Origin: Endomicrobiales bacterium
Lineage (GTDB): Bacteria; Elusimicrobiota; Endomicrobiia; Endomicrobiales; CAWCFT01
Direction: 5' to 3'
DNA: 64,000 nucleotides
Assembly: GCA_963794945.1 (NCBI GenBank)
Contig: CAWCFT010000001.1
Location: 224,001 to 288,000, forward strand
The notes under the pieces: model-generated
Databases searched by the model: none
What the model was told of the DNA's origin: nothing
What the model saw: the letters and a program-made list of their open reading frames with translations, nothing else
Position numbers and translations under genes: made by a program
In this document: positions 1 to 17,972 of the stretch, piece by piece
How the letters are laid out: the number at the start of each line of letters is the position of its first letter
Numbering within the stretch: position 1 is the stretch's first letter

Positions 1-3000
1 AGTGTCGCTAAACTTAAGCGTTGTTTTCGGCATGAATTTCAGCGTGGTAACATCCATTGGTGTGCCGTTCGCAGAATACTGTTCATTTTTGTATGAATAT
101 ATGTCGGTATTATAAGTTAACCTGTCTCCTAAAAAGCTGCCCCTGGCGCTTATTTTTGACGTGGTAAATCCGCTTCCGGGCTGATTCTGCTGGTCAAAAG
201 TAGAAGACTGAATAAAATGCCTGTTACCTAGAGCATCGGACTGCCCAGTCATATTCGTAGTTATCTGTTGCTCTAATAAATTATTATTGTTATTCCAATG
301 AAATGTGCTGTTCTTATCCATTACATCGGAAGCCGCATAACCTGCCAGACTTGGTGTTACCTGGTTTGTTCCATTAAAACTGCCGTCTAAATTCGGCAGG
401 GTTCCGGAATCGGAAGATAAATGATCATGCAGCGGGTTAAGCTGGAGTGCAGGGTACAAAACATTCAGCATATTTACACTTAGATTAGCGCTGCCATTGA
501 CAACTTTAAGCATTTCTGACGCGCCGGGCATGTATAGCTTAAGGTCTGATTTGCCGGAAGGCGGGCCGGTATTCTGATATGTGAAAATAAAGTTCCCATT
601 GGAAATTCCGGCGCTTTTCAGCTTGATATTATTTTCCGGTTCATTCTCTCCTTTCTCGCGCTTGGCCACGTTCGCCATAAGCACGTCCCTGGCATCGGTT
701 TTTTGTTTGATCATAAGATTTATTTCTTCTATTTTTTTGTTCATCTCTTTGCGCACTTTTTCCGTACCGTGAGGATGGAGTACGTCTTTCATTTTACCGC
801 TAAGCGACATAAAATCCATAAATCCCGCATAAAACAAGCTTGCCGGGTTTACTCCCGCAGGCACCACTATCTTTGTGCCTTCGCTTATCTTGCCGGATTT
901 TTCCGCGGGCAAGAGTATTTGATCTCTTATCTCGGTTAAATACGTAATTTCACTTTCAAGGTTCTTAATATTTGACGATTCTTTTGAAGCGTTCGATTCC
1001 TGCGGCTGGTTGTCAACTAACTTTCCCGGCTCTTCACCCTGAAAGAAGGCCAGCTTTAGGCTTACACTGTTCGATTCAGAAGTTCCAGCATCAGTAAGCC
1101 TTTTAAGGTCATTTTTAGCAAGAGCAATATTTAGCTGATAATCCAGGCTGCTCTTATCCGCCAAGTAGGCGTTTTTCAGGTTCCGTATAGAGTGCAATAG
1201 GTCGGCCCTCAAAATATCCGCGGCAAGTTTCTGCTTCTGCTCTTCGATCTTCTGATTAAGCTCCGCGCCATACTTGGTGAGCAGTTTATCGGCATTACCC
1301 TTGATAATGAAGGTTACAGCCTGCATATTCGGCAGCGATACTTCCAACTTCACTTGAAGGCCTGATTTCGCTTTTGTTATCTGGGAAGTTATCAGCTTGT
1401 CCGCGAGTTCGTTCCTCTGGTTGTTAAGCGTATGCTTAAGGCTTTCATCAACAAAAGCAGAAATGCTCGCCTCTTCGTCTTCCGGTTTTGCCGCTGATGT
1501 AATGTTTATATCTATATTTTTGACCACATTGTCGGTTATTCCTTTTTCACGTATGTATCCCTGTATGATCTCTCTTTGCTTAAGCGCCTGCTTGTAAAGC
1601 GCCTGCATGTCCGCATTATCCTGCATGGCTTTCACGTCAAGTTTTTCTATTTCGGAGATTATCGTATTGATGTCATTAAAATGATGGATTAGGTCAAGTG
1701 AATTCTCTTTCAAGTTCAGTTCCATCAAGTCTTTGGTAAGCAGCGCGATATTCCTGTTCTCCCTTCTTTCCGGATTATACAGGTCGGCTTCAACGGCAAG
1801 CCCCAGCGAAGGTTTTAAACCCTGGTGGCTGTACAAGAAATTCGGCCCGAAGGACAATGAAGAGATTGGCAGGCGCGACACAAGCCCGCCGGATTTCTTT
1901 ATAACTGGTTCCATGTTCCCATCGTATTTGACACCGTTCTTATCGAATATTTTCTTCATCGCAAAACCGATTTCTTCGTGTTTGATTGCGTCATTTAGAG
2001 AATAAAACGCTTCTTTTAGTTCAGCCATAACTTTTTGCGAGGTTTTTTCATCAGTATTCGCCATATTCAATAACATCATGGTCCTTGAGAGCTCGTATTC
2101 CTTAAAGTTCAACATCTCCAGGCTTCCGCGAATGCCGTCCATGCGCGTTTCCAATTCATTATTGAACCATTTTCCGATGTCTTCCGGGCCTTCATATTCT
2201 TCTGCCGGAATAGAGTTTTTTGATCCGCTTCTGTATATTTTATTGTTATCTTGAACCTTCCCTGAAGGCATAAACTCCTTATGGCTGCCGTCTATCTGCC
2301 TGTTATCTTCCGGTACAAGCATCTGCTTCTGAGGCTGGTTATTGTTCTGTTCTTGAACCTGAATTTCTTTCTGTTCTTGAATTCTGGTATTTTTCTGGTT
2401 TTGCAATGTTAATAGCGCTGCGCTAAACCAGTGCGCGCGCTCATCGTCACTCAACAATTTATTTTTTTGCGCTTTATATTCCCTGTAAAGCATGTCGACA
2501 GTATCTTTATTGAGTGTCACAAGCGTTATCAGGCAGCTGTCAGGTAATCCCGGGAACCTTGAACGCTCTCCTTCAACCCTTTGCCTGAATTCTTCACTGT
2601 TCTTCATCTGCTGTTTGGCAATTTCTTTGGCTATCTTAATGGAATCAATTAAATTACCCGGGATAACCTTGATCTTTTGGCCGGTAACAGAATCCGTCTT
2701 GTAATACCCGTTGGAATTGACGTGAAGAACGTTCGGCACATTGGTAGCGGCAAAACAAATGTCTCCAGCGACCGGTATATTGTAAGTGGCCTGGCTAAAA
2801 TCCCTGACCATGCTGCCGAACGCGCCGAGCATGCCGCCGAACCCGCCCTGATCGGGCGAAACGGCGAACCTGCCCAGCAGGTCATTCGGCCCATAGAGGC
2901 GTATGCCGTCGCCGGCTATGGGGTGGTCGGGGTTCGCGCCTTCGATCAGTTGCCCCAGCTGCTCAAAGACATGTATATTTACCTTGTGGAACAAAGAAAC

Positions 3001-6000
3001 GACCCAGGAAATAGCTTTGTCAAAAAAGCCTAACTGCATCAATACTATAGATATTTCCGTGTTTACGAACCACATGCTGAACCAGCCGGAGGGAAGCCTT
3101 TTCCAGAATTGTGAATTCCCGAATACATCTTTTCGGGAGGCGAGCCTCGCATCTTTTATGGACTGGTCAATGTCTGTCGGTGTTATTATCGGAGGTGTGT
3201 TCTGGTCAATATTGCCGAGAAGGGTTCTGATCTGTTGCTTCTGCACGACACTTGCCTGTATAAACCTGTTTGACTGCCACCGTTTTTTTCCGTCGTGCTC
3301 CATTATGGCGTTAATAATGCCGATAGCCTGAGGGCTGACATTTCCCCTTGCTTTCTGCGCTTCAAGGTAAGCGATTATAGTTGCACCGTCCCACGACCAC
3401 GGCACGAAATTATCGTTGATATCGGAAAACCCATGGGCCGTCCGCAGATTTCTGCTTTCAACTTCCTGCTGCGTCACGGAAGCAGCCGGGATATAATTAA
3501 TGGCCGTTTCTTTGCCATTTTTAACAACCTCCATGTAGCGCTCTTCAAGAGGCAGGTTAAAGAATTCACTATTAAGCAGATTAGCCTTAGCGCTGCGAGT
3601 AGCCCGCGAAAAGCTTCTGACAAAAACAGTTATCAGCGGGCTTAGTATCGCTTGAACTGCAAACCCTTTATAAAGAGTTGACAAAATCGGAATCATCTGC
3701 ATTTTCGCTGCAAGGCCCGGTATAACACCAAGGATATTCATCCCCATCATGGGAACACCAAGATACATCGAAAGCAGATATAGCCCAAGAAGAACAGCCG
3801 GTATCACGGCCATCCTGAAAATATGCCATCCGCGGGCGGTTAGCAAGCCCTGTTTTTCTCCCTTATCGGGCGCCCATTTTACCGCCGCGTAGATATATAC
3901 TGCCGCAAGAATCGGTATGAAGAACAAAGGATTAGACGCAACCAGCGCCAGTATGCTACCTGTTATAAAGGTTGTCACAACAAAGAGATTCGCCCTTTCT
4001 TTAAAGAACCTGAAATGCGCTGCGATAAGCGTTATTTCAAGCACGGGCCTGAGCGTTTCAGCTATCTGCCGCGCGAACATTTTAATTCTGCCTGAAAATG
4101 TTGTTCTTAACTGCTCCTGCTCGCGAAGCTGGTCTACGATAGTCCTGGATATCTCCTGCTGGGAAAGGTAAACTTCCTTGTTCCTGCCCAGCCAGTGGTA
4201 CCTCAAAGCGCTGTCGAGATGTCTTAGGTAAAAACCTCTGAAAAGATGTAAAGCGAACCTTCCTGATACCATGTAAAGCACAGCCGCGCCTGATGATTTT
4301 ATATTAAGCCTGCCCTTATGTATCAAGTCATTCTTTATATTTCTCCACATATCCCCAAAATTCATTTTTTCAATTTCTTCACCGTAATTTTTTTTGGTGT
4401 AGTATGCCTGGTTAAGCTGTTCCAGCCTCTGGTAAACAAGCCACCAGTTTGTTCCGTTTTTACCTCCGGCAAGAAGTTTATCTGCATCGCCGCCCTGAGT
4501 TTGAATAGATTGTCTTACATATTCCTCTCCGCCATATTTCCTGAAAACACGTTCTTTTATTGTTTCGTTTAAAGCTGTTTTCCCGGATATTATTTCATCG
4601 GCCTGGCTTTCCTGCTTGGGTGAGTTAACAGCGCCCCCTCCGGCCGAAGCAGGGGGATTCAAGGCCGAAGTGTTAAACCATGATCCTATCTTTTCAATTA
4701 GTTTTCCTGCCTTATAATCTATCCTGCCGGAATGCCGCAGTTCGGGCATTGCTGACAATGCCGTATTGTAGCCCTTGTTAAATTGTAAAAGCGCGGCGAC
4801 GGAATCCTTTGCGGAACCTGGGTCCACAACGAAAGATTCCGCATAATCGAGGCCATTATCAGGATAGATCCTTTTCAATATTTCCTGAAGTTGAACACGT
4901 TCACGCACTTCAGATTTTAAATAGCAATCTACCGCGGTGCCTGGAAATCCAAGAAATATGCCTAGAATGGAATCACTGATATTTTCGTATTTGTCTGTTC
5001 TTGCTTTACCTGTTGCGAATAGATTGTTAAGCTCGTCAATCTCAAACCCGATTATGTACTGAGAAATAAGCCCGTCTATCTGCTGTTTGTTCATAAAACC
5101 GGACCCCAAACCAAATGGCGCAGTCATTCCCGCTTGCCTGAATTGATCAGCTAGAAAATCTCTATTTTCAGTGAAAACCTTGTTTATTGATTCGATATTG
5201 TAAATATACAGCTCATATTTCCCGGAATAATTGCCGCTCTTTCTTTCCGAAATACATACACCTACCCCAAGTTTTTCAAAAAGTATTTTTGCGTCTTCAC
5301 TTTCATATAGTTTTTTAACGGCCTTCGTTATGATGCCGTAATATCCGGGCTTACCTCCGCCAAATACTGATGCACGAGCCGCACGGCCTTTTACATAATT
5401 CAGTCCTGAAACATTTAACGTTTTTGCGGTGATCAATTCTTCAAGAAGGGATAAAGATCTAGTATCGAGGCTCCTCAATCTTGCGGCCCTTTCCGCGTCT
5501 TCCGTGTTTTTTCCCCTACCTATCATGGACTTTAATTCCTGTATGCCACGTTCGCCGAGAGCGGCAAGAACTTTGTTTACATTTCCTTCTACGGCCACCC
5601 TTTTTGTCTTACCACTGCTCCAGTTTTCCCTAGCCTTTTTACGCAGCCACCTTACAAACCCGTACGCAACAGCCGCCGCTCCTGCCGTGATCAATACTAT
5701 AACTCCGGCGCTCATCATGCCGTAAGATTGTTGCTGCATAATTGCCGCTGTGCCGGCGTGGGCAAGCATAGGCGAAAGGAATATCAGCCCTAAAGACATG
5801 AATAATCTTAATATGCCGGGCATTTTACTATTCCGTGTAAAATCGTAAGAAATACTAGTTTTATTTATATCTATCGTGTAAATATTTTTACCCGTAGACA
5901 CATTGTAAATACCAGGCTCTTTTGTGGTCACTATCTCCACGCGGCCCGAAATGTTATTCGCCTTCATCCAGGCATTGATCTCTTCCTCGATATCTCGTAT

Positions 6001-7674
6001 TGAAAGCTTTTGAGCAGCAGCCCGCCTGGCCCACGCGCCTATCATAATATCTACTGCATCCCGCGGCATCCCGACGTCCAGAAGCACTGGAGCGAAGAAT
6101 GAGTTAACGAACCTGTTCACATTAAGCGTTCCGCTGAAAGTCTCACGGTAAATGCTGTTATCGTATGCAGTGGTTATCGCGGGCATCAAAGTGATGTTAG
6201 AAATAGCTTCTCTATCGAAATACTGAGTAACATCCGAATGGAAACCTCCAGTTACCATGATAATGATATTCTTGTATTGCGCGAGCTTGTCAGCGCTGCA
6301 AAGCTGGTCGGGAGGCTGCTGGGGTAAAGGCCCGGTGTAAGTTTTACCGATATATTCTCTTGCAGCGTTATAAAATATTGAGTTTCTTTCCTTATTTGCA
6401 TCATAAAAACCAAATAATTCATTTTCATGTTCTGTGAGGTAAGATAAAACATCGTTTAATTCGGTGTCATCAATATATTTCTTTAATGTCGCCTTGAATT
6501 TAGAATTATTGCATTTTAAGTACTCGTAATCCTGTGACCCAAGTTTGAGCTGACAGAAATCACCCAGATATTCGTCCATTTCCGACAAAAATAGCATTTC
6601 TTTGTCCAGCAAAGTATCTGCGTGCTTTTCAAGCGCCCTCCGCAGGAAAGCCTTTTCTTCATACAGAAAAGATACTGGATTGATAGAATTTGTTAAACGG
6701 ATATAATCGAGAAATTTGTCAAGGTTCGGGTACGCACGCATGTATGGAGTGTACAACCTGGAAAGTTCTGAAAGTGCCAGATAGTATTCATTTTTGTGCT
6801 CTTTATTTCCTGACAGGGCCACGAGCTTTTCATATGCCCCGAAAGGAGCCTGAGTCTTCAATTCCTCCACATATGCCCTGTGTTCCATGTCAAGCTTGTA
6901 ATAGTTGATAGTTTCATTTACCTGCCTCAGCCTTAGGTACCTTTCGAGGTGCGGGTAACTATGCAGTGAAATGCCGCTTTCGTAGCTCAGCCGTTCAATT
7001 TCCCTATAGTAGGACTGAGGAGCGCCTTCTCTGCTGTTATCAATATATCTTTCATATTTTTTGATCTTCCCGGAAAGATAGTTCTCTTTGAGCTCCCCAA
7101 CCCATTTATGGATCTTCCCGACTTGCCTGCCGTATTCATCCTGAGATGAAAGTATTGAGTTGATCCTCTTTAGATTCTCGTTATATATGTCCCATTTTTC
7201 AAGCCCGAAAAGAATATTATTATTTCGCGTAACGGCGTAGTATTCGGCCCCGGAGATCAGCCCGTTATGGAGCAATCCGTCAAGCAGATATTTCTTCGTG
7301 CCGTTTCCGGGCAATGAGGAAAGAAAGCTTGTATCAACATGGCCCTGCGGTGCTCCTTCTGTAAGTATCGCGGAGACTTTATAGTGGTTGTCTAAATACT
7401 CAATAATGCCGAAGATGTTTTTCTGTACTTCGGGATCGCAGTGCAGGTCTTGAACACAAACTACCAGCGTGTCAGTGTGATACAGCTGTGAATCGATGAC
7501 TTTACCTAATTCATTAGGCACAGGAGATCGGTCTATCACACGTGAAAGCCGGGACGCTGCGGTGTTGTTATCAAGCAGTATCTCCACGCCTTTTAGCGGC
7601 TCGCAAAGCACAAATGAAAAAGCAAACGCGCTAAGTGTTATAAGTGTGACATAGTATTGAATTTTTTTGATCAT
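1..7674 (-). CDS. Giant multi-domain membrane/secreted protein, 5' part (>2558 aa, continues past position 1)
   Basis: ATG at 7674 (MIKKIQYYVTLITLSAFAFSFVLC, signal-like). Manual translation stays open to position 1 (...PMDVTTLKFMPKTTLKFSDT). N-terminal motifs VQDLHC / TEGA / SGAEY / ERN / VTGGFH, and several internal hydrophobic segments. Absent from the ORF track because there is no stop in the window. Confidence 0.92.
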   Translation of the reverse strand, partial: MIKKIQYYVTLITLSAFAFSFVLCEPLKGVEILLDNNTAASRLSRVIDRSPVPNELGKVIDSQLYHTDTLVVCVQDLHCDPEVQKNIFGIIEYLDNHYKVSAILTEGAPQGHVDTSFLSSLPGNGTKKYLLDGLLHNGLISGAEYYAVTRNNNILFGLEKWDIYNENLKRINSILSSQDEYGRQVGKIHKWVGELKENYLSGKIKKYERYIDNSREGAPQSYYREIERLSYESGISLHSYPHLERYLRLRQVNETINYYKLDMEHRAYVEELKTQAPFGAYEKLVALSGNKEHKNEYYLALSELSRLYTPYMRAYPNLDKFLDYIRLTNSINPVSFLYEEKAFLRRALEKHADTLLDKEMLFLSEMDEYLGDFCQLKLGSQDYEYLKCNNSKFKATLKKYIDDTELNDVLSYLTEHENELFGFYDANKERNSIFYNAAREYIGKTYTGPLPQQPPDQLCSADKLAQYKNIIIMVTGGFHSDVTQYFDREAISNITLMPAITTAYDNSIYRETFSGTLNVNRFVNSFFAPVLLDVGMPRDAVDIMIGAWARRAAAQKLSIRDIEEEINAWMKANNISGRVEIVTTKEPGIYNVSTGKNIYTIDINKTSISYDFTRNSKMPGILRLFMSLGLIFLSPMLAHAGTAAIMQQQSYGMMSAGVIVLITAGAAAVAYGFVRWLRKKARENWSSGKTKRVAVEGNVNKVLAALGERGIQELKSMIGRGKNTEDAERAARLRSLDTRSLSLLEELITAKTLNVSGLNYVKGRAARASVFGGGKPGYYGIITKAVKKLYESEDAKILFEKLGVGVCISERKSGNYSGKYELYIYNIESINKVFTENRDFLADQFRQAGMTAPFGLGSGFMNKQQIDGLISQYIIGFEIDELNNLFATGKARTDKYENISDSILGIFLGFPGTAVDCYLKSEVRERVQLQEILKRIYPDNGLDYAESFVVDPGSAKDSVAALLQFNKGYNTALSAMPELRHSGRIDYKAGKLIEKIGSWFNTSALNPPASAGGGAVNSPKQESQADEIISGKTALNETIKERVFRKYGGEEYVRQSIQTQGGDADKLLAGGKNGTNWWLVYQRLEQLNQAYYTKKNYGEEIEKMNFGDMWRNIKNDLIHKGRLNIKSSGAAVLYMVSGRFALHLFRGFYLRHLDSALRYHWLGRNKEVYLSQQEISRTIVDQLREQEQLRTTFSGRIKMFARQIAETLRPVLEITLIAAHFRFFKERANLFVVTTFITGSILALVASNPLFFIPILAAVYIYAAVKWAPDKGEKQGLLTARGWHIFRMAVIPAVLLGLYLLSMYLGVPMMGMNILGVIPGLAAKMQMIPILSTLYKGFAVQAILSPLITVFVRSFSRATRSAKANLLNSEFFNLPLEERYMEVVKNGKETAINYIPAASVTQQEVESRNLRTAHGFSDINDNFVPWSWDGATIIAYLEAQKARGNVSPQAIGIINAIMEHDGKKRWQSNRFIQASVVQKQQIRTLLGNIDQNTPPIITPTDIDQSIKDARLASRKDVFGNSQFWKRLPSGWFSMWFVNTEISIVLMQLGFFDKAISWVVSLFHKVNIHVFEQLGQLIEGANPDHPIAGDGIRLYGPNDLLGRFAVSPDQGGFGGMLGAFGSMVRDFSQATYNIPVAGDICFAATNVPNVLHVNSNGYYKTDSVTGQKIKVIPGNLIDSIKIAKEIAKQQMKNSEEFRQRVEGERSRFPGLPDSCLITLVTLNKDTVDMLYREYKAQKNKLLSDDERAHWFSAALLTLQNQKNTRIQEQKEIQVQEQNNNQPQKQMLVPEDNRQIDGSHKEFMPSGKVQDNNKIYRSGSKNSIPAEEYEGPEDIGKWFNNELETRMDGIRGSLEMLNFKEYELSRTMMLLNMANTDEKTSQKVMAELKEAFYSLNDAIKHEEIGFAMKKIFDKNGVKYDGNMEPVIKKSGGLVSRLPISSLSFGPNFLYSHQGLKPSLGLAVEADLYNPERRENRNIALLTKDLMELNLKENSLDLIHHFNDINTIISEIEKLDVKAMQDNADMQALYKQALKQREIIQGYIREKGITDNVVKNIDINITSAAKPEDEEASISAFVDESLKHTLNNQRNELADKLITSQITKAKSGLQVKLEVSLPNMQAVTFIIKGNADKLLTKYGAELNQKIEEQKQKLAADILRADLLHSIRNLKNAYLADKSSLDYQLNIALAKNDLKRLTDAGTSESNSVSLKLAFFQGEEPGKLVDNQPQESNASKESSNIKNLESEITYLTEIRDQILLPAEKSGKISEGTKIVVPAGVNPASLFYAGFMDFMSLSGKMKDVLHPHGTEKVRKEMNKKIEEINLMIKQKTDARDVLMANVAKREKGENEPENNIKLKSAGISNGNFIFTYQNTGPPSGKSDLKLYMPGASEMLKVVNGSANLSVNMLNVLYPALQLNPLHDHLSSDSGTLPNLDGSFNGTNQVTPSLAGYAASDVMDKNSTFHWNNNNNLLEQQITTNMTGQSDALGNRHFIQSSTFDQQNQPGSGFTTSKISARGSFLGDRLTYNTDIYSYKNEQYSANGTPMDVTTLKFMPKTTLKFSDT

Positions 7675-7732
7675 AAATTGCCGTCTTTGGATACTATATG
7701 CCTTGATTTTCACGGGGTGGCTGCGGTCTCTA

Positions 7733-7882
7733 TTATTGCCGTTTCTTACCTGTACTGACCGATCTTATAACGGCAAACACTTCTGGTATGCGTTTCCTGC
7801 GGCGTCTTGAGAAAATGCCGGTTCTCTTTAGATAGTTGCCAATAATCGTCAGCATCTGGCAATACATAATATTTTTAATCAT
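7733..7882 (-). CDS. Small basic protein (49 aa) upstream of the giant gene
   Basis: GAGAGGTG RBS before ATG at 7882. Sequence MIKNIMYCQMLTIIGNYLKRTGIFSRRRRKRIPEVFAVIRSVSTGKKRQ. Lies just downstream of the predicted promoter. Confidence 0.45.
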   Translation of the reverse strand: MIKNIMYCQMLTIIGNYLKRTGIFSRRRRKRIPEVFAVIRSVSTGKKRQ

Positions 7883-7907: not shown

Positions 7908-7961
7908 AATATACCCAAAATCGATTAAGCGTATATAAAGATAATGTTAATATTCCGTTAA
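7908..7961 (-). promoter_or_regulatory. Pho-box-like tandem operator plus -10 for the giant-gene unit
   Basis: Minus strand TTAACG-N5-TTAACA-N5-TTTATA-N5-TTAATC-N9-TATATT. Confidence 0.65.
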
Positions 7962-7980
7962 TTCAGCCGACGGAATAACT

Positions 7981-8033
7981 TTACCAAGATTTAACAAAAC
8001 ATTAATACCATATTAATTAAAAAACTATACTAT
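7981..8033 (+). promoter_or_regulatory. Pho-box-like tandem operator plus -10 for olsBA
   Basis: TTACCA-N4-TTAACA-N5-TTAATA-N5-TTAATT-N9-TACTAT (an overlapping TATACT lies at 8026). Confidence 0.6.
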
Positions 8034-8076
8034 GTACCCAAGAACATGCGGAGTATCTATAAGGAGAAGAACAAAC

Positions 8077-9060
8077 ATGACAAATTCAGTGCTCATCAAA
8101 CAGCAGCCTTTCCCAAAGTTTCCCGATGCTTTCAACACCGGCCCAGTTCTTACAAAACCATATAGGCTGGCGTTCAATGTTTTTCATCCCAAGATCCGGC
8201 TCTGCCTCCACAAAGGTAGATATACAGTCAAGACGGTTTCTGAGCCCGCTGAACTGGAAAAAGTCCTTCAACTCCGCCACGAAGTATTTTGCATAGAAAA
8301 GGCTGGAAGAACACCCTACATAGGCATCGATTGGGACCGGTTTGATCTTATCTGCGACCATCTTATGGTGATCGACAGGCTTTCATCTAAAATAGTGGGG
8401 ACCTATCGTCTAAACTCATCTCTATTTACAAAAAACTTTTACTCCGCTAAGGAATTTAATATCGATAACATAATCAAACTGCCAGGCACAAAACTCGAAC
8501 TCGGGAGAGCGTGCATTCACAAGGAATTCAGGAATGGCATTATGATCGCTCTGTTGTGGCGAGGTATCTGCGAATACATGAAAATGACCGGCACAAAATA
8601 CCTTTTTGGTTGTTCCAGTGTTGACACAACTGACCATGAAGAGATCAACAATATCTATAACTATTTCCTTGTAAATCACTATAGCCAGGACAACCTGAGA
8701 GTATTTCCTAAAATTAAATATACGGCTATAAACCGGAACCTTATGCGTGGTCACATTCTTTCAAATGACGGGACTATCAACCGGGTGCATCAATATTCCA
8801 CAGATATACACAATAGCCTTGAACACCTGAAAAACAATGCCGGTAAAGGATGTTCAACAAAAGACCGTGAACAAAGTAATTCGGCTTCATCTTCTTCCAA
8901 TAACGACATAGCTATCCCGCCTCTTATAAAGGCGTATTTAAGGGCTGGAGCCGTTATTTGCGGCGAACCGGCGCTCGACAGTTATTTCCGCTGCACTGAT
9001 TTCTTTACGTTTCTGGATGTTGAACTCATGAATAAATCGATTGAGAGGAGGTTCTCATGA
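8077..9060 (+). CDS. olsB: GNAT-family N-acyltransferase, OlsB-like (amino-lipid/ornithine-lipid synthesis)
   Basis: Motifs LRHEVF, DRFDLICDHL, VGTYRL, ELGRACIH, FGCSS, PPLIKAYLRAGA, PALD..F...DF. AAGGAG RBS before ATG at 8077. Confidence 0.8.
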   Translation: MTNSVLIKQQPFPKFPDAFNTGPVLTKPYRLAFNVFHPKIRLCLHKGRYTVKTVSEPAELEKVLQLRHEVFCIEKAGRTPYIGIDWDRFDLICDHLMVIDRLSSKIVGTYRLNSSLFTKNFYSAKEFNIDNIIKLPGTKLELGRACIHKEFRNGIMIALLWRGICEYMKMTGTKYLFGCSSVDTTDHEEINNIYNYFLVNHYSQDNLRVFPKIKYTAINRNLMRGHILSNDGTINRVHQYSTDIHNSLEHLKNNAGKGCSTKDREQSNSASSSSNNDIAIPPLIKAYLRAGAVICGEPALDSYFRCTDFFTFLDVELMNKSIERRFS

Positions 9061-9881
9061 TGCGTATTGCGAAGATGCTTTTTGCGGGCTTGCTAATTGT
9101 TACCTACAGCCTTATTTCACTTATAGGGTCCGCGTTTCTGTTCAACAACCGCGCCCGCACGGTATTTTTAACAAAAACAACTTCATTTTTCTGCAATACG
9201 CTTTTAGCAGTGCTTGACATCACCGCTGTAGCATTGCACTCGCCTTTATGGCGGCAGGACAAGCCGTATCTGGTAGTGTCCAATCACTTATCTTATCTTG
9301 ATATTATTGCCATAGCGTCCACAATGCCGGCCGTTTTTGTGTCCAGCATGGAAATACGCGCGGCGGCCTTCCTGGGTTTCATCGCACGCTGCGGCGGAAC
9401 GATATTCATTGAGAGAAGAAAGAAAATGAAGAATTTGAAACGGGAGATCAGAACAATAACTGAAACACTGAAGCAAGGGCTTAATGTCGTGATATTTCCC
9501 GAAGGGACTTCTTCTAACGGTACAGGAGTTCTTCCTTTTAAGAGATCTCTAATGGAAACTGCGTTTCAATCCAACAGCGACGTTCTGCCTGTCTGCCTTA
9601 TGTATTCCCATGATAGCGAGAAGTTGTCCGGCCCGAGCAAAGAGTCCGTGTTCTGGTACGGAGATATGAAATTTTTTTCTCATTTTTTCAATCTTTTTAA
9701 ACAATCAAAGCTGGTAATAACACTGCAGATCATGGAACCGCTCAGGATTGACGCTTACGCTGACAGGAATTCTCTCACGGAAGACGCCTATCTTTCAATA
9801 GCGGCCGCTTACAACTGGCAGAAACCTTATGCTTACGAAAATGACCTGATAAACCCTATGGACCTGTCATTCGAAAGATAG
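9057..9881 (+). CDS. olsA: PlsC/OlsA-family lysolipid acyltransferase
   Basis: NHLSYLD and FPEGT motifs; overlaps the olsB stop (ATGA). Confidence 0.8.
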   Translation: MMRIAKMLFAGLLIVTYSLISLIGSAFLFNNRARTVFLTKTTSFFCNTLLAVLDITAVALHSPLWRQDKPYLVVSNHLSYLDIIAIASTMPAVFVSSMEIRAAAFLGFIARCGGTIFIERRKKMKNLKREIRTITETLKQGLNVVIFPEGTSSNGTGVLPFKRSLMETAFQSNSDVLPVCLMYSHDSEKLSGPSKESVFWYGDMKFFSHFFNLFKQSKLVITLQIMEPLRIDAYADRNSLTEDAYLSIAAAYNWQKPYAYENDLINPMDLSFER

Positions 9882-9900
9882 ATCTATATCCGGCAAATAC

Positions 9901-9954
9901 TTAACAGATAATTAACATAATATTTATCCAGCCTTAATCTGGAATATGTATTAT
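9901..9954 (+). promoter_or_regulatory. Pho-box-like tandem operator plus -10 for the glycosyltransferase
   Basis: TTAACA-N5-TTAACA-N5-TTTATC-N5-TTAATC-N9-TATTAT. Confidence 0.65.
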
Positions 9955-9985: not shown

Positions 9986-11140
9986 TTGTTATATGTTTGC
10001 GAAACAGCAATGGGGTTCTCACTATTTGTCTACCTGGTCTATTTGTTTTTTACCACATATTTTAAAAACCCCGTAAAACACGTTGTGTATACTGACAAGA
10101 GTTACCCCAAAGTCAGCATTCTGAAACCATTGAAATATATCGACAATGATTTTGAAGATAATCTCCTGAGTTTCATCACACTTGATTATCCGGACTACGA
10201 GATACTACTTGGAATGGACAATTGCAGTATTGAAACAATAGATAAACTAAAACTTATATGTTCTAAATATCCAAACAATATTGTTAAGCTCATCGCAAAG
10301 AAGGGCTTCTCAAGAAGTAATCCAAAAATAGAAACTCTATCCGTCCTCGAAAGTTATGCCTCCGGAAGCCTTTACTGGGTGTCCGATTCCAACACAAGGG
10401 TCGGCAAAGATACACTCAAAATGCTGGTAAACGAATACCTTACAAATAAGTCAAAACTCATTTACTCCCCCATCTTCGGCACGGGCAGCAAAACCGCTGC
10501 CAGCGTCATGGAAAACTCTTACCTGAACCTTTTTGTTTCGGGAAGCATATTAACCGGCAATATTACAGCTAAACAGCATATAATAGTCGGCAAGTCCATG
10601 CTTATTGAAAGGAATGCTCTTGAAAAATTCGGCGGGTTCTCTTATTTTGGAAAGTATTTGGCTGAGGACTTCATGATAGGCAAGGAATTTTTGGAGAGAG
10701 GCATGTCAGTGTCAAGTAATTTTACTTGGATCACGAACTATGTTTCAAACTCTTCAATACCGAGTTTTGCGGCAAGGATGGCAAGATGGGCCAAGTTGCG
10801 GTTCCATCTCAACCCGCTAATTTACTGTTTAGAAATACTTACCAACCCCATAGGGCTGGGACTGATCTCTATTATGATGCTTGGCAAGGAAGCTCTACCA
10901 GCTGCATTATGCACAGCGTGCGCAAAAATTTTGATCGAGTACGCCAGCATGCTGATAATGAATCCGGCTGACGCCAGGAAACTCTGGATACTCTTATCTT
11001 TTCCTTTCGTTATATTGTTTAGAGATGCTATCTTGTTCTTCTATGTATACTTTATTCCCTTCATTTCGTATACAGTGTCCTGGGGAAACAGAACTATGAC
11101 CATTGGAAAGTACAGCATAATTAACGAAGCACGAGCTTAA
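9986..11140 (+). CDS. GT2/GT21 ceramide-glucosyltransferase-like (HpnI-like) membrane glycosyltransferase
   Basis: VSILKP, NPK, DS, GKSM, LAEDF and RxxRW motifs; C-terminal TM helices. AAGGAG RBS then TTG at 9986. Confidence 0.8.
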   Translation: MLYVCETAMGFSLFVYLVYLFFTTYFKNPVKHVVYTDKSYPKVSILKPLKYIDNDFEDNLLSFITLDYPDYEILLGMDNCSIETIDKLKLICSKYPNNIVKLIAKKGFSRSNPKIETLSVLESYASGSLYWVSDSNTRVGKDTLKMLVNEYLTNKSKLIYSPIFGTGSKTAASVMENSYLNLFVSGSILTGNITAKQHIIVGKSMLIERNALEKFGGFSYFGKYLAEDFMIGKEFLERGMSVSSNFTWITNYVSNSSIPSFAARMARWAKLRFHLNPLIYCLEILTNPIGLGLISIMMLGKEALPAALCTACAKILIEYASMLIMNPADARKLWILLSFPFVILFRDAILFFYVYFIPFISYTVSWGNRTMTIGKYSIINEARA

Positions 11141-11688: not shown

Positions 11689-11765
11689 AATTCAAAATTG
11701 AAAATTATAATATTATAAAATTCAACCCTCAAATCTTCAATCTTTAATCTTTAGATCTTCCAATT
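11689..11765. repeat. 7-bp-periodic repeat (AATCTTT family) overlapping the cusA 3' end
   Basis: aaatcttcaatctttaatctttagatcttccaat; related to 50495-50575. Confidence 0.5.
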
Positions 11766-14700
11766 TATCTTGTTTCTTCTTCCACAAAAAATATACCGCG
11801 GGATAGACCAGCAGTTCCATAAGGAATGACGTAAATATCCCGCCAACCATCGGCGCTGCAATGCGTTTCATGACATCCGCGCCTATCTCGTGCGACTGCG
11901 CCCACATGATCGGCAGAAGCCCGATGAAGAGTACTGCCGCTGTCATAAGTTTTGGGCGTATCCTTTTTACGGCCCCGTGCCACACGGCGGCCTTAAGGTC
12001 GTCAATGGTCCTTAGAAGGCCGTTCTTTGCCGCCTCGTCGTGCGATAGGTCAAGGTATAACAGCATAAAAATACCCGTCTCAGCGTCAACACCGAGCAGC
12101 GCTATGATACCCGACCACACGCCTATCGAAAGGTTATAGCCAAGAAGCAGAAGTATCCACACCGCGCCTATGAGCGAGAACGGCACCGCCAACAGTATGA
12201 TAAAGGTTTTCGTATAAGACCTTGTGCTTAAGTAAAGCAGTATGAATATAATGAACAGCGTCAGCGGCACTACCACCTTCATGCGCTCTTTGACACGTTC
12301 CATGAACTCGAACTGGCCGCTGAACTCAATGGAATAACCGGGTGGAAGCGCGACCTCTTTTGATATCATTTTTTTCGCGTCCTCAACATAACTGCCAAGG
12401 TCCCTGCCCGCGACATCGACGTAGACATAGCCCGTTAGCCTGCCGTTCTCGTCCCTTATCATGCCGGGTCCTGTCTCGGTTTTGATATCCGCGATCTCGT
12501 AAAGCGGTATCTGAGCGCCTGACGGTGTAGCTATGTATACCCTCTTTATCTTTTCTATGTCGTTCCTAAGTTCTCTTGGATAGCGGACGTTGACCGGGAA
12601 CCGTTCCCTGCCCTCGACGGTCTGGGTAACGTTCTCTCCTCCGATGGCCGCCATTATGTTATTGCCCACGTCTTCTACGGACAACCCGTACCTCGCTATA
12701 GCTTCCCTGTTGAGGTTAAAATTGACGAAGTAGCCTCCGGCGGTACGCTCGGCGAACGCGCTCCTTGTGCCTTTTACCATCGAGAGATGAGACTCGATCT
12801 CTTTGCCTATTTTTTCAACCACAGCAAGGTCGTCACCATATATCTTTATACCGACCGGGGTCCTGATACCGGTCGAGAGCATGTCTATCCTGCCTTTTAT
12901 CGGCATGGTCCATGCGTTAACTACACCCGGCAGCTTGAGCTTGGCGTCCATTTCGGAAATGAGCTCGTCCCAGCTTATCCTGTCCGGCCAGAACATTTCT
13001 CAGTGGGCCTGACATGAAATCAGGCATAAAGCTGTACCACCTGTCCTTCCGGCGCCACTCGTTCTGCGGCTTAAGAACTATCGTCGTCTCCATCATTGAC
13101 AGCGGCGCGGGATCGGTCGACGTTTCCGCCCTTCCCGCTTTTCCAAATACTGTCAGCACCTCAGGGAACGACTTTAGCAGTTTGTCCTGCGCCGTAAGCA
13201 GTTCCTGGGCCTGTGAGATGGAAATTCCCGGCAGTGTCGTGGGCATGTAAAGTATTGAGCCCTCGTTAAGCGGCGGCATGAACTCTTTGCCCAGCATAAA
13301 AAAAGCTGGAATAGTAAGGATGAAAGCGAGGATCGCCACCGCTATGACCTTATAAGGATGCTTCAGTACCGCATCTACAACAGGCCCGTATATCTTGAAA
13401 AGGAAGCTCGATATCGGGTGTTTGTCTTCCGAATGTATCTTGCCCACTAGTATAATGTTCGTAATCGAGGCTAGCCACTTTGGCTTGAAATCGTAATTTT
13501 TGAGGCGCGTAAAAAGCATCCTTATGGCCGGATCGAGCGTTATGGCGAGCCCCGCCGCAAAGAGCATTGCGAAATTTTTAGTGAATGCCAGCGGTTTGAA
13601 AAGCCTGCCTTCTATCCCCTCGAGCGAGAATATAGGTATGAACGCTACGGCTATAACTATAAGCGAAAAGAACGAAGGCCTTGCGACTTCCTTTATGGCT
13701 TTCAGGAGGATTTCTTTGTAGTCGCCTTTCTGGCCGCTCTCCTGCCAGAGCGCAAGCTCCTTATGCGCGTTTTCAACAACAACGATCGCGGCGTCCACCA
13801 TAGCGCCTATAGCGATGGCTATGCCTCCAAGCGACATAACGTTAGACGTTAGTTTCATGTAATACATAGGTATAAAAGCGAAAAGAACCGCGATGGGAAG
13901 GGTAATTATGGGTATAACTGCCGAAGGAAAATGCAGGAGGAATATGAGTATGACAAGTGAAACGACCAGCATTTCTTCAATAAGTTTTTTGCGGAGCGTG
14001 GCGATAGCCCTGTTTATGAGTTCGGAACGGTCGTAAACAGTAACTACCTTGACCCCGTCAGGCAGTTTTACTTGAGCTAGCCTTTCCTTTACACGTTCAA
14101 TAGTGTTCAAGGCGTTTTCGTTATAGCGCATTACCACTATCCCGCCAACCACTTCCCCGTTGCCGTTGAGTTCGGACACCCCCCTTCTTATATCCGGCCC
14201 AAGCTCTACCGCGGCGACATTCTTTACCTTAACCGGGACGCCGTTAACTACTTTAAGCACAGCCTGCTCTATGTCTTCCTTTTTATTGATGTAGCCCTTC
14301 ACCGTAAGCATATACTCGGTGCCGGAAAACTCTATAACCCTCGCGCCCACCTCCTGGTTAGAGCTCTTTACCGCGCTAACCACCGCCGAGATCGGTATCT
14401 TATACTGCTGGAGGGCCACGGGGTTAACAATAACCTGGTACTGTTTGATGTAGCCCCCTATAGAAGCTACCTCGGCCACGCCTTTGACCAACTGTAGGGC
14501 GTATTTCAGGTGCCAGTCCTGGAACGTGCGGAGCTCGTCAAGTGTGTGCTTGCCCGACTGGTCAACAAGTGCGTATTGGTATATCCAGCCGACGCCTGTC
14601 GCGTCCGGGCCCAGTTCTACTTTTGCGTCCTGCGGCATCTGCTGGTTGACCTTAGAAAGGTATTCAATCACCCGGGAGCGGGCCCAGTAAACGTCAGTGC

Positions 14701-14995
14701 CGTCCTCAAAAATAACGTAGACGTATGAGAAACCATAATCCGAAAAGGCTCGTATGTCTTTTACTTTCGGAGCGCCAAGGAGCGCGGAAACGATAGGATA
14801 TGTTACCTGATCCTCGATAACCCGCGGAGGCCGGTCCCACTTGGTATAGATGATAACCTGAGTGTCGGTAAGGTCGGGTATAGCATCAAGCGGTATATTC
14901 TTTATAGCCCAGACCAACCAGGCGATCATAGCCGCGACGCCCAGGAACACGAACGCCTTATTCTTAGCCGACCATTCAATGATTTTTTCGATCAT
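11737..14995 (-). CDS. cusA: CusA/CzcA heavy-metal RND permease (one +1 frameshift near 12997)
   Basis: DAIPDLTDTQVII, GAMVDAAIV, RIRPKLMT. ORFs 12917-14995 and 11737-12996 join if one base is removed. Confidence 0.92.
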
Positions 14996-15031
14996 TTTGT
15001 TAACCTAATTCTTCTGTGTTATTGCTGAAAA

Positions 15032-16271
15032 CTATTTTTTACCACCCATATCCATACCTTTCATGCCGTTCATTGCGCCACTACCCTGATTTTCCGGGGC
15101 AGCGAAGCTGGCTCTCCGAATCCAGCATAAAATTGCCTTCAGTCACTACAAGGTCGCCCTTCTTTAAACCGCTTGTTATCTCAACATAATCGTCGCCTGC
15201 AAAACCTGTCTTGACATCACGCGGTTCATATTCTCCGTTGCCGTAGTCAATGTACACTACCTTTCTTAATCCAGTGTCGATGACCGCTGTTTTAGGCACC
15301 GCAAGGGCCGAGCCATGCGAGGTTTTTAAATCGATATTCGCGAACATTTCAATTTTCAAAAGGTTACCAGTGTTATCCGCAAGTATCCTTGCCCTGGCCG
15401 AACGCGTCTCCGGGTTTATCGCCGGCTCGATGTAAATTACTTTGCCGTGGAACTTTACGTTTGGAAAGGCATCTACCACCGCAGTTACTTTTTTGCCGGG
15501 CTTGATAGACTCCAGGTCACCCTCGTAAATATCAGCGAACATCCAGGCTTTGTCTCCGGGGTATAGCAAAGTATTGTCAGGTTTACCCTGCTGCTCCAGT
15601 TCTTTAATAGCGTTATCGGTGTATCCGAGAAGCGAGAGGCGGAATTTCGTGGCATCAATTATCCTGCTTATCGAGCTTGAGTTCTTGTAGCTGAGAAGGT
15701 ATTCCTGCTGGGCAACGTAAAGGTCGTTGTCGTAAGCCACTTTCGCAGGCAGGCGGACAGTTTTGTTTATTTGTTCAAAGCGCGCGGGCTGGCTTTTGAG
15801 CCCGAGCAGTTTAACCTTGGCCGGTTCAACCGTTATCCTGCCGCTTTCTTTTTTGTAAACTGGCACAAGGTCCATACTGCATATCGGGCACTTGCCCGGG
15901 CCGTTCTCTTTTACCTGCGGGTGCATGGGGCAGGTCCAATAAGCAATTTCTTTACCGCCGGCATTTTTCCCCATGCCATTCATTTCCGGCGCTGGGCTGA
16001 TAGCGTTGTTCCCGGCAAGCAAACCGAGCTTCTTTTTGAAGTCGACAGAGCATTCCGGACAGCAAAGAAAATAGGTTTTACCCTTGTAATCCACGGCCTT
16101 TGTATCCTTGCTTACGTTGAACACATTGTTAGTGACCGGGCATATCGCCTGCATGCCTATTTCTGTTGCCCTGGCGGGGCGCAGTTTATATTCTCCTGAC
16201 TTGGAACAGGCTGCTGAAACCAGAAAGAGAATAACTCCGAAAATTATTGCCTTGGAATAATAGCGTCCCAT
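15032..16271 (-). CDS. cusB: CusB-like RND adaptor with YHS-like and CPMH heavy-metal-binding domains (probable +1 frameshift near 15100 before a Met-rich tail)
   Basis: CPVT..YFLCCPEC; WTCPMHP..CPICSMDL; MFP core. The alternative frame gives the tail GAMNGMKGMDMGGKK*. Confidence 0.85.
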
Positions 16272-16301
16272 TTATTTCTCCAGTTTTTTCTTTTTTATAT
16301 T

Positions 16302-16562
16302 CTAACGCATTGATTTAATAAGTTCAAATAGCTGCGGCCCTTTTATTACCGCGATCACGGCGAGCACTATTATATACAATGACCCTAGAGCTATCGCCGC
16401 ATAAGCTAAATTCCTGCCTCCGGTCTGCCTTTCTTCTATCTCCCTTAAGGCAAGCGAACCGAACACTATGGCTATTACGGCTTTTTCGAGGCCAAACAGC
16501 TGAACAAACGAGCAAACCCCTACCGTGAATGCCGCGACTGCCAATCTTGATCTTGTGTTCAT
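16302..16562 (-). CDS. Small membrane protein (DUF4190-like)
   Basis: MNTRSRLAVAAF...ALREI...GRNLAYAAIALG; ATG at 16562 immediately after the anti-sigma stop. Confidence 0.7.
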   Translation of the reverse strand: MNTRSRLAVAAFTVGVCSFVQLFGLEKAVIAIVFGSLALREIEERQTGGRNLAYAAIALGSLYIIVLAVIAVIKGPQLFELIKSMR

Positions 16563-16563
16563 T

Positions 16564-17070
16564 TTATTTCCTCTCTTTGCAGTTGCATTGCGCGCCGGGC
16601 TTGTCCTTACAACACTCGCAAAGCCTGTTCGCGCACCTATCACAGAATTTTGAGAAATTAGCCGGGCCGAATAGTCCGTCTTTCGTATAACCGGCAAGGG
16701 TACTTTTTGCTATTTCTGATATGCTGGCGCCATAAATGGCCGGCGATACCAGCGAGAACAAAGAGAATATAACCAGTAAAAAAGAAATACCGATCGGCAC
16801 AGGCGTCCATTTAAATACCGGCAAGAAAGGCCTCTGTTCCTGGGTATCGTAAGTTCTTGCCTTTGCCCAAAATTCCGCTCGGAACCTGGGTGATATCCTT
16901 ATAAATATTGATTGTTTTTTCAACAGGTTGTGCTGTTCAGTAAGCGCAGAGAGTTGTTCCCTGCAACCCGGACACTTATCCAGATGCTCTTCCAGGGTCG
17001 CATTTTCCCCAGGCGTCAACTCTGAGTCCATATAAGCGGAAAGCTTTTTCGATACGGTATTGCAGTTCAT
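16564..17070 (-). CDS. zf-HC2 anti-sigma factor with TM helix and Cys-rich C-terminus
   Basis: C...LSAYMD.EL...HLDKCPGC; TM segment; CDRCANRLCECCKDKPGAQCNC. Confidence 0.85.
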   Translation of the reverse strand: MNCNTVSKKLSAYMDSELTPGENATLEEHLDKCPGCREQLSALTEQHNLLKKQSIFIRISPRFRAEFWAKARTYDTQEQRPFLPVFKWTPVPIGISFLLVIFSLFSLVSPAIYGASISEIAKSTLAGYTKDGLFGPANFSKFCDRCANRLCECCKDKPGAQCNCKERK

Positions 17071-17087
17071 GTTTCACCTCTACTATA

Positions 17088-17115
17088 TTAAACGACAAAA
17101 GGCAGGAAAACTTGC
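17088..17115 (-). promoter_or_regulatory. Possible ECF-type promoter for the anti-sigma/cus operon
   Basis: Minus strand GCAAGT-N15-CGTTTAA, upstream of a GAGGTG RBS. Confidence 0.3.
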
Positions 17116-17245
17116 GGTGTGTTCACTGTTATATTACAAATGCCTATCGATATCTTATACAAATATCGTGCTATTTTTACAACTATATACTTCGGCTGAC
17201 GGCTGGCTTATTTCTACCGGAAAGTGGTTGTGGAAGGCTGGCCAG

Positions 17246-17386
17246 TTAAAATAGGATTCCCCTGCATCCGCCGCAATGCACACAATTGGCGCACCTGATC
17301 CTTTTTACGGGCTTTACGAAGTCATATTTACTGTTCCGTTTGAACGCTTTTTTAGGTATTTTTTTTGATGTTTTTTTCTTTTTCAT
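17246..17386 (-). CDS. 46-aa Lys-rich peptide with a CxxCxxCxxC motif
   Basis: MKKKKTSKKIPKKAFKRNSKYDFVKPVKRIRCANCVHCGGCRGILF*. Starts 1 nt after the sigma stop with a GGAG RBS; shorter than any ORF in the track. Confidence 0.65.
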   Translation of the reverse strand: MKKKKTSKKIPKKAFKRNSKYDFVKPVKRIRCANCVHCGGCRGILF

Positions 17387-17387
17387 T

Positions 17388-17972
17388 TCACACTCCGGAT
17401 TTAAGTGTTTTGGCAAGATTTTGCCTCGCCCGAAATATCAGAGACTCGACGGATGCTAAGGAACAGCCGAGTATTTCAGCTATTTCTGCATACGACTTGT
17501 CTTCATACACTTTCAAAGTTATAGCGAGCCGCTGGTTGTCCGGCAGTTTTGAAAGCCCAGCATTCACAAGTTCTTTTTCCGCAGAGCTTTCAGCCGCCGT
17601 CTCCGGGGCTACCGAATGTACGTCTTCAACTTCAATATTTTTACCCTCGCCGTCATTTTCACGGGCACTAACGGGTTTTGCGCCCCATATAGCGTTGTGT
17701 TTTCTTTTCTTTAGATGATCGAGCGAAAGGTTTGAGGCTATTCGGTACAGCCATGTAGAGAACTTAGCGGATGGGACGTACGATTTAGCCGACTTATAAA
17801 CCCTTAAGAATACTTCCTGCGCGACATCTTCGGCTTCCCGTGCATCGTGAGTGAAGCGGTAAACATAATTGATAATTGGGCCTTCATATTTTGCAAGCAG
17901 GGCATTAAAAGCGTTTTCATCGCCGTTTTTAAAGGCTGCCATCATCTCCGCGTTTGCATCTTTTGGTATCAT
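17388..17972 (-). CDS. ECF RNA polymerase sigma factor
   Basis: AEDVAQEVFLR, FSTWLYRIASN, SYAEIAEILG, VESLIFRAR. Confidence 0.93.
   Translation of the reverse strand: MIPKDANAEMMAAFKNGDENAFNALLAKYEGPIINYVYRFTHDAREAEDVAQEVFLRVYKSAKSYVPSAKFSTWLYRIASNLSLDHLKKRKHNAIWGAKPVSARENDGEGKNIEVEDVHSVAPETAAESSAEKELVNAGLSKLPDNQRLAITLKVYEDKSYAEIAEILGCSLASVESLIFRARQNLAKTLKSGV

Follow-up and report, generated by a model that had tools for sequence, protein, structure and literature searches.

Under which condition is the gene for a protein of several thousand residues switched on? The question is raised by a 64,000-nt stretch of an Endomicrobiales genome (the window; G000:C1:224001-288000), in which the promoter of a giant open reading frame (ORF) of 6,744 aa (G000:C1:211479-231713) faces away from that of two genes resembling olsB and olsA. 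G000 denotes the 2.9-Mb, 86%-complete genome holding the window, other G numbers denote its relatives and L numbers denote fetched loci. The Bacillus PhoP box has the consensus TT(A/T/C)ACA, and an earlier note on this DNA, seeing similar hexamers ahead of the giant gene, olsBA and a glycosyltransferase (GT) gene, had assigned the giant gene to a phosphate-starvation regulon and proposed that its product scavenges phosphorus, possibly from other cells. On comparison across genomes, membership of the giant gene in such a regulon is very probable: its site ranks second in the genome with a matrix trained on other genomes, the box is conserved in orthologues, and the motif is linked to the pst genes. 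The predicted promoter elements are as follows.

7923..7961, minus strand: predicted Pho box ahead of the giant gene, with its four hexamers in 11-bp phase (32.6 bits, genome rank 2 with the foreign-trained matrix)
7908..7913, minus strand: predicted -10 element TATATT, 9 nt past the fourth hexamer of the giant array
7980..8018, plus strand: predicted Pho box of olsB-olsA, divergent from that of the giant gene (25.0 bits, rank 6)
8028..8033, plus strand: candidate ols -10 element TACTAT after a 9-nt gap (the alternative is TATACT at 8026-8031, after a 7-nt gap)
9901..9939, plus strand: predicted Pho box of the GT gene (33.6 bits, rank 1)
9949..9954, plus strand: predicted -10 element TATTAT of the GT promoter

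The earlier note had described all three arrays as four hexamers at ~11-bp phase, and those of the giant and GT genes were found exactly as claimed. On the minus strand from 7961 the giant array reads TTAACG-5-TTAACA-5-TTTATA-5-TTAATC, then 9 nt and TATATT, with a TAT-n-n-T-like element at the same distance in orthologue promoters; on the plus strand from 9901 the GT array reads TTAACA-5-TTAACA-5-TTTATC-5-TTAATC, then 9 nt and TATTAT. The ols array is present at its claimed place, but the first hexamer named for it, TTACCA (7981), lies only 10 bp ahead of the next, and strict 11-bp phase makes TTTACC at 7980 the first unit. The giant and ols arrays are separated by 19 nt.

Both the hexamers and the intergenic DNA of G000 (360 kb, ~58% AT) are rich in A and T, and chance matches had to be considered. 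The scoring matrix came from 15 pst/porin promoters belonging to 13 other genomes and included no G000 site; its training sites were located by a pattern seeded on the hexamers of the earlier note, which makes it independent in its sequences and not in its seed. With this matrix the GT, giant and olsB sites took the ranks listed above, and the third rank went to the array ahead of the porin-pst operon (31.4 bits). Eight sites of at least 24 bits were observed, against 0.05 per shuffle over 40 dinucleotide shuffles of the intergenic DNA, in which the highest single score was 25.8 bits. Controls with the reversed pattern gave 0 to 2 matches per genome, and among 12 giant promoters the majority base had a frequency of 0.93 in hexamer columns vs 0.56 in spacer columns. 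The motif is thus far commoner than AT-rich intergenic DNA would yield, and chance is refuted to the point of having a negligible probability. Only nine of 2,461 ORFs carry a site of at least 17.5 bits within 350 nt upstream, with the window genes first, second and sixth: the GT gene, the giant gene, the porin gene, dnaE, a C17 gene of unknown function, olsB, ppx-ppk and two more giants. The tenth-ranked ORF is a PHP-GT4 gene, whose homologue in G004 heads a boxed operon with olsBA, and the homologue of the C17 gene adjoins phoB in G012.

The genome scan also reached phosphate genes, an outcome that the earlier note had named as support. A PhoB/PhoR-like pair, whose best NCBIfam matches are PhoB (TIGR02154) and PhoR, lies directly upstream of porin-pstSCAB-phoU in G000, and the four-unit array precedes this operon at C8:50972, as it does ppx-ppk and the PHP-GT4 gene. 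The PhoB-like regulator is encoded at G000:C8:52721-53401. Of 17 relatives whose pst loci were fetched, 15 have the array ahead of the porin gene or pstS, and at the pst loci of the other two (G017, G023) no array was found. In G014, which has no PhoB orthologue, there was no array match; five genomes of genus g17, in which PhoB was not matched, gave one exact match in all, and the giant boxes are gone from this genus, a single lineage. We consider it well supported by these sequence comparisons that the arrays, with the consensus TTAACA-N5-TTAACA-N5-TTTATN-N5-TTAAYN, are the Pho box of this lineage, that is, PhoB operators. A Pho box and a compact Pho regulon are thereby defined for an order that had no such description in the literature searched.

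Could another OmpR-family regulator bind the array in response to a signal other than phosphate? G000 encodes two more OmpR-type regulators, and a similar sister array (described below) stands before 20 of 78 other giants, which indicates that related boxes serve other signals. The giant site scores 32.6 bits with the pst-trained matrix vs 9.8 with a matrix of the sister array, however, and from genome to genome the TTAAC-type array tracks phoBR-pst, being absent or almost absent where PhoB was not found. Another regulator is therefore improbable, and PhoB is the preferred candidate.

The predicted regulon resembles those described elsewhere. Known Pho boxes consist of direct repeats of 11 nt upstream of pst, ppk/ppx and genes for lipid remodelling (PMC4415409, in the part available), and here too 11-nt repeats lie ahead of pst, ppk/ppx and lipid genes, with an OmpR-family regulator and its kinase beside pstSCAB-phoU. 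The consensus is unlike the CTGTCAT of E. coli or the GTTCACC of Streptomyces, and the regulon is small and includes a membrane protein of several thousand residues. The closest published box found is the cyanobacterial SphR box CTTAACCT (PMC1906773, in the passages available), which shares the TTAAC core, the 11-bp period and at least three repeats upstream of the -10 element. The SphR and Bacillus boxes belong to other phyla; in the arrays described here TTTAT consistently forms the third unit, and the box is a prediction.

Conservation of the box ahead of orthologous giant genes, which the earlier note had named as a check, was found in most genomes. Sixteen PhoB-bearing genomes had upstream DNA, and in 12 of them, from six families, the giant has its own box or lies in a boxed operon. 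The scores are 32.6 bits in G000, 32.8 in G024, 26.3 in G013, 25.6 in G090, 25.5 in each of G087, G088 and G100, 25.2 in G003, 24.5 in G016 and 17.7 in both G007 and G022, while in G011 the giant is transcribed behind a boxed olsBA. This count leaves out G107 (13.6 bits; no PhoB match, 74% complete) and G004, G091, G103, G112 and G118, in which the 5' end of the giant gene is missing or was not fetched. G087 has just two pattern matches genome-wide at one mismatch, one at the giant and the other at a porin gene after phoR. Linkage of the giant to pho/pst genes recurs independently of the box: the order in G011 is phoBR-box-porin-pstSCAB-phoU-box-olsB-olsA-giant-box-ppk, the G003 giant follows the pst operon and is divergent from a boxed ppx, and the G024 giant lies between phoR and porin-pst. 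In a later set of 156 giant loci (149 scorable), six were boxed, all from the orthologue group of the window giant and five of them already known, and none of 76 giant loci lacking its repeated membrane module was boxed. The sole new box, at L315, precedes a giant 63% identical to that of the window, and the divergent olsBA/giant layout is kept with both arrays (26.0 bits for the ols array). In trees, two groups of 12 and 6 rows (the group of 12 cut from full proteins and not from alignments) meet at an open node, and a single origin of the boxed orthologue is not proven.

The same data bear on whether the giant is a bystander, its array being the reverse face of an ols operator that serves only the ols genes. 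TTAA is self-complementary, the two arrays are close together and reverse-strand echoes reach 14.8 bits, all of which such a reading would explain. It is contradicted by the giant's own array with its own -10 element and by nine genomes that keep the box with no ols genes adjacent (G003, G007, G013, G016, G024, G087, G088, G090, G100), and is very improbable.

Several observations weigh against Pho control of the giant gene, or against the array as a Pho box. The PhoB match scores 237.8 against an NCBIfam cut-off of 296.2. High-scoring sites ahead of dnaE and nrdR and at C1:22340 have no explanation; a second pstS (C1:157049) has no strong array; a site at a purple acid phosphatase gene (C1:106951) scores 17.1 with the seed matrix and falls outside the top 40 with the foreign-trained one; and olsBA of G001 has no array within 1.5 kb. 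Giant sites are weak in four PhoB-bearing genomes (14.5 bits in G104, 14.3 in G025, 13.6 in G027, 12.4 in G106), which do hold perfect-pattern arrays, at pst genes where located. None of the giants was boxed in the six g17 genomes with no PhoB match (8.2, 4.7, 2.7, 0.7, 0.7 and -2.6 bits), and since all six belong to one genus they amount to one event. Because g17 giants persist without PhoB and four PhoB-bearing genomes have weak sites, the giant appears to be useful outside Pho control as well.

From the known PhoBR mechanism and the conservation described above, the regulation can be outlined with high confidence. When phosphate is scarce, PhoR would phosphorylate PhoB, and two PhoB dimers would bind head-to-tail on the four repeats, which replace the -35 region. 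Sigma-70 polymerase would then transcribe a small ORF and the giant gene, and the same activation would occur at olsBA, the GT gene, porin-pstSCAB-phoU and ppx-ppk. The start of the predicted transcript contains the following features.

7733..7882, minus strand: basic small ORF of 49 aa with a ribosome-binding site, lying after the promoter and before the giant gene
1..7674, minus strand: 5' part of the giant gene (ATG at 7674 or GTG at 7713), which continues to G000:C1:211479
6094..7530, minus strand: family N-terminal domain with QDLH...EG...GGFH motifs, recognized by alignment, after a signal-like hydrophobic segment

The protein sequence of the small ORF is conserved in L315 and, less closely, in G013; it had no Pfam match. 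Arginine-rich ORFs of ~50 aa follow the Pho promoter and precede the giant start in the window (7733-7882), at L315:9617-9772 and in L057 upstream of 13599; a leader, a chaperone or a translational coupler are possible roles. At the other end of the gene, a 1,198-aa ORF with GH77-like and GDE_C domains (C1:207769-211365) sits past the giant ORF in another frame, together ~7,980 aa. The two are fused as one gene in G003, G004 and G007, and the linker that joins them in G004 can be aligned over the frame change near C1:211530; by this alignment the 1,198-aa ORF is part of the same gene. Since the assembly also splits cusA, pstS and ppk by frameshifts, the frame break is probably a read error.

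What the giant protein does was approached through its domains. The core of all orthologues is the N-domain, two or three modules and the GH77-like and GDE_C region, and each full module consists of a helical bundle, a membrane hairpin and a domain of sugar-nucleotidyltransferase fold. The module fold matched GDP-fucose pyrophosphorylase 9iis (Z 15.8, rmsd 3.8, 249 aligned; Foldseek E 4.6e-5); one such nucleotidyltransferase-fold module spans aa 5400-5760. Sugar-1-phosphate nucleotidyltransferases have a glycine-rich nucleotide-binding loop, GGxGxR, after strand 1, and this loop is absent from all 16 module proteins scanned and from the module alignment. Because this catalytic loop is missing, the most likely activity of the modules is binding or sensing of NDP-sugars or sugar phosphates, not their synthesis. 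Of 122 genomes of the class, 28 carry the repeated membrane module, usually in a single gene; among 301 phylum genomes, two that lie outside the order have weak matches. A hydropathy scan gave the N-terminal signal-like segment and ten more helices, and a basic patch after the helix at 5019-5037 suggests that the nucleotidyltransferase-fold modules are cytoplasmic. The GH77-like/GDE_C end matched PF06202 at 194 bits and PF02446 at 40 bits (partial, model 7-269/465), which passes the Pfam cut-off, and is also present in G003 and G007. For the N-domain (model pLDDT 87) the best structural match was ChaN 2g5g (Z 9.4, rmsd 5.3, 178 aligned), followed by EreC (Z 7.9), and Foldseek with the N-domain model returned nothing at E<=0.001; a ChaN/EreA-like fold with a helical insertion is a lead only. 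The N-domain has distant relatives in Omnitrophota records. Pfam and NCBIfam searches of the 6,744-aa ORF found no family, and sequence searches of the PDB, made with the module and a conserved part of the insert, gave nothing useful. A NurA-like module suggested by ESM Atlas (0.81, below the lead threshold) was contradicted by the fold search. An insert of ~3,700 aa in the window giant, with beta-rich and repeated parts, is common to G011 and G004, and as far as L315 extends into it, that locus agrees as well. Its beta-rich part (aa 2350-2900) was SprA/porin-like in ESM Atlas (0.82, below the lead threshold) and has one clear relative besides itself in a library of 1.8 billion.

With a core of sugar-nucleotidyltransferase-fold modules and GH77/GDE_C domains and no phosphatase or nuclease detected, we favor, tentatively and at somewhat less than even odds, a sugar-nucleotide/alpha-glucan scaffold or sensor for phosphorus-free envelope building and carbon storage. 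The protein would be an inner-membrane-threaded scaffold with an exported N-domain and a variable extracytoplasmic insert, followed by two or three cytoplasmic nucleotidyltransferase-fold modules, each anchored by a helical hairpin, and then by alpha-glucan transferase and debranching domains. In starvation it might route sugar between alpha-glucan stores and a phosphorus-free envelope (glycolipids, amino lipids, surface glucan) rather than digest prey. Taken as a whole, PhoB operators, a giant gene in the Pho regulon and a sugar or glucan role form a likely explanation.

The scavenging role proposed by the earlier note was, unlike the regulon, not supported for the window giant. In that reading the PhoB-controlled giant would contact other cells or polymers, its outer insert binding or breaching the target and releasing phosphate compounds. 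Pho regulons typically include scavenging enzymes (PMC4415409), giants of Omnitrophota have been interpreted as predatory (10.1101/2023.11.21.568195), both sources as far as available, and the size and repeats of the insert in the window giant and a LysM domain in the G013 orthologue would suit such contact. Against these, no lytic domain was detected in the window giant and, by Pfam, neither it nor any orthologue has a phosphatase, nuclease or wall hydrolase domain, and most orthologues (2,300-3,700 aa) lack the insert yet keep the box. Two other boxed giants of G000, on C6, carry PHP, PLD, calcineurin-like and metallo-beta-lactamase (MBL) domains, and one of them has a boxed, MBL-bearing sister in G004; HD, HAD and LOG domains, for their part, occur in non-boxed giants too. 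For the window giant scavenging is thus unlikely; it fits the two C6 giants better, and these are the best candidates for it.

The sugar scaffold or sensor has its own difficulties. The topology is drawn from the hydropathy scan, and no function could be assigned to the insert. In family f10, whose members G087, G088, G090 and G100 have a short form of 3,100 aa, the GDE domain has decayed or is missing, and by alignment it is lost in G021, G022 and G025. The GH77/GDE_C end is also present in a non-Pho giant (C4), and the module in two giants that have no PhoB-type box (G003:C8, G016:C162).

G000 has seven genes with the giant N-domain, three of them boxed. The two on C6 have weaker boxes (20.1 and 18.0 bits) in one shared intergenic region; at this locus (L004:6273-20000, L053, L054; G000:C6:123-176 kb) two divergent, frameshift-split giants flank Pho-type arrays, and they also carry LOG, HD and deaminase domains. 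In relatives, 97 N-domain loci were taken, a part of all matches chosen by score, and nine of the 94 with upstream DNA score at least 17.5 bits, the next scoring 13.7. In contig scans a single N-domain query gave no match and the alignment A3 did. Four G000 giants are instead preceded by a ~165-aa ORF and a hairpin resembling a terminator, and a sister array, TT(T/C)ACA-N5-TT(C/T)AC(A/G), lies upstream of 20 of 78 non-Pho giants, mostly at 600-990 nt; the reverse strand gave 0 and shuffles 0.055. Those of its G000 sites that precede a ~165-aa membrane ORF and terminator are listed here.

G000:C4:363719, sister array site
G000:C18:16044, sister array site
G000:C18:23656, sister array site

The sister array also stands before other exported-protein genes (C8:22089, 22497). 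Because the window site scores only 9.8 bits on the sister matrix, Pho-type and sister-type giants are distinct classes, and promoter motifs can sort giant paralogues into regulatory classes. Antitermination of the NusG type by the ~165-aa ORFs was considered and rejected, as they had no Pfam match. A four-unit TTAAC/GTAAC array precedes distant giants (L382:2265, L386:9785, L393:3826, L409) and, in family f26, many exported proteins. The GTAAC type, noticed ahead of three distant giants, is found in 15 of 401 phylum genomes, where 28 loci examined held mixed genes and one giant; none of the 28 matched pst queries, and this array was not shown to be a Pho box.

A broader possibility, which we put slightly below an even chance, is that the Elusimicrobiota giants are envelope machines of one family, built on a common export and N-domain chassis, and that tandem 11-bp operators have placed the paralogues under different starvation signals. 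One old orthologue would be PhoB-induced, at least one other lineage would have been separately recruited to PhoB with a phosphoesterase cargo, and many of the rest would be under a sister TTCACA-type regulator via the small upstream gene and terminator. If so, giant proteins would be nutrient-specific inducible modules and not constitutive predation weapons.

The other genes under the window arrays are as follows.

8077..9060, plus strand: olsB-like GNAT N-acyltransferase (NF052554, 114.8 bits vs a cut-off of 350; PF13444)
9057..9881, plus strand: olsA-like O-acyltransferase (NF052552, 112.8 bits vs a cut-off of 300; PF01553)
9986..11140, plus strand: GT21/HpnI-like membrane glycosyltransferase with a TTG start after AAGGAG (PF13506; TIGR03472, 145.8 bits vs a cut-off of 310)

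OlsB and OlsA are the best NCBIfam matches of the acyltransferase pair, both below cut-off, with the glycine-lipid proteins GlsB and GlsA far lower, and the olsB-like gene is putatively assigned to the synthesis of ornithine or another amino lipid. The GT21/HpnI-like gene encodes a probable glycolipid synthase. It does not qualify as HpnI, and no squalene-hopene cyclase (PF13243) was found in the 86%-complete genome, which leaves its acceptor uncertain. In G004 and G007 the box stands immediately ahead of the homologous GT genes, in G003 homologous GT genes belong to a boxed operon, and in two relatives a metallophosphoesterase gene stands beside the GT gene. PhoB control of ornithine lipids is known (PMC12971839, in the part available). 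The olsBA-like, GT21 and PHP-GT4 genes under the box here resemble that PhoB-controlled remodelling to ornithine lipids and glycolipids, and differ in that all assignments of the enzymes fall short of curated cut-offs, the lipids are predicted and a giant gene is, by prediction, co-regulated.

In the parts of two preprints that were available, giants of Omnitrophota and relatives have a signal peptide, many membrane helices, an undescribed N-terminal region and strings of sugar-enzyme-like domains, very large genes are noted in Elusimicrobiota, and the giants are read mainly as prey-wall effectors (10.1101/2023.11.21.568195; 10.64898/2026.06.07.730766). The window giant shares the signal peptide-like start, the many membrane helices, the undescribed N-terminal region and the sugar-enzyme-like domains. 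It differs from the published giants in being predicted to be nutrient-regulated and in having no detected wall-degrading domain. As for archaeovorin-type traits (HEAT repeats and wall-degrading domains, by the definition given in the accessible passages), no Pfam family was found in the 6,744 aa. The word "promoter" is absent from the main texts of both preprints, and "PhoB", "regulon" and "induc" from that of 10.64898/2026.06.07.730766; the accessible parts of PMC11257099 contain neither "giant" nor "PhoB", and those of 10.1101/765248 neither "giant" nor "phosphate starvation". Our literature searches found no paper linking a giant protein to the Pho regulon, and a search for Elusimicrobi, PhoB and regulon gave only unrelated papers. 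LapA of Pseudomonas fluorescens is a very large adhesin that is reportedly released from the surface under low phosphate via c-di-GMP and LapD/LapG. LapA and, by prediction, the window giant are very large envelope proteins with a phosphate-dependent fate, whereas the giant gene here appears to be activated directly and its product to be an inner-membrane-threaded multidomain chain. Pho boxes and PhoB-controlled ornithine lipids were already known; Pho regulation of a giant gene, as predicted here, was not reported in the literature searched. In the available parts of the published work, roles of giants are drawn from domain lists and neighboring genes with no inducing condition, and a conserved PhoB operator would supply one: phosphate limitation is the condition in which to look for the giant by proteomics, cryo-ET and metatranscriptomics. 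For the window giant, the operator points to nutrient physiology rather than predation.

Further observations were made at the boxed loci. Between phoB and dnaE (L003:11815-11890; G000:C8:53815-53890), overlapping arrays lie on both strands; the stronger faces dnaE and the weaker, with TATAAT, faces phoB, where autoregulation is possible. A strong array that has no good -10 element lies ~420 nt before nrdR (L002:9560-9620; G000:C6:61571-61607) and also precedes a ribonucleotide reductase/dCTP deaminase cluster, a possible Pho link to nucleotide synthesis. The boxed C17 gene (L005:7823-10524) heads a two-gene operon for an unknown 337-aa protein and an M23-like protein. In both G007 (L059-L060, C28) and G016 (L058, C55) the Pho-boxed giant neighbors a glgC-like gene, and in G007 also a boxed GT21 gene and a metallophosphoesterase gene.

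Elsewhere in the window, CusA/CusB-type heavy-metal efflux genes (11737-17972) are preceded by genes for an ECF sigma factor and a zinc-finger anti-sigma factor, and a NiFe hydrogenase large subunit is encoded at 22784-24247. The cusA-like gene (11737-14995) and a lactate dehydrogenase gene (19749-20706) are split by frameshifts, as are pstS on C8 and ppk on C9, and such breaks in ordinary genes are consistent with indels throughout the assembly.

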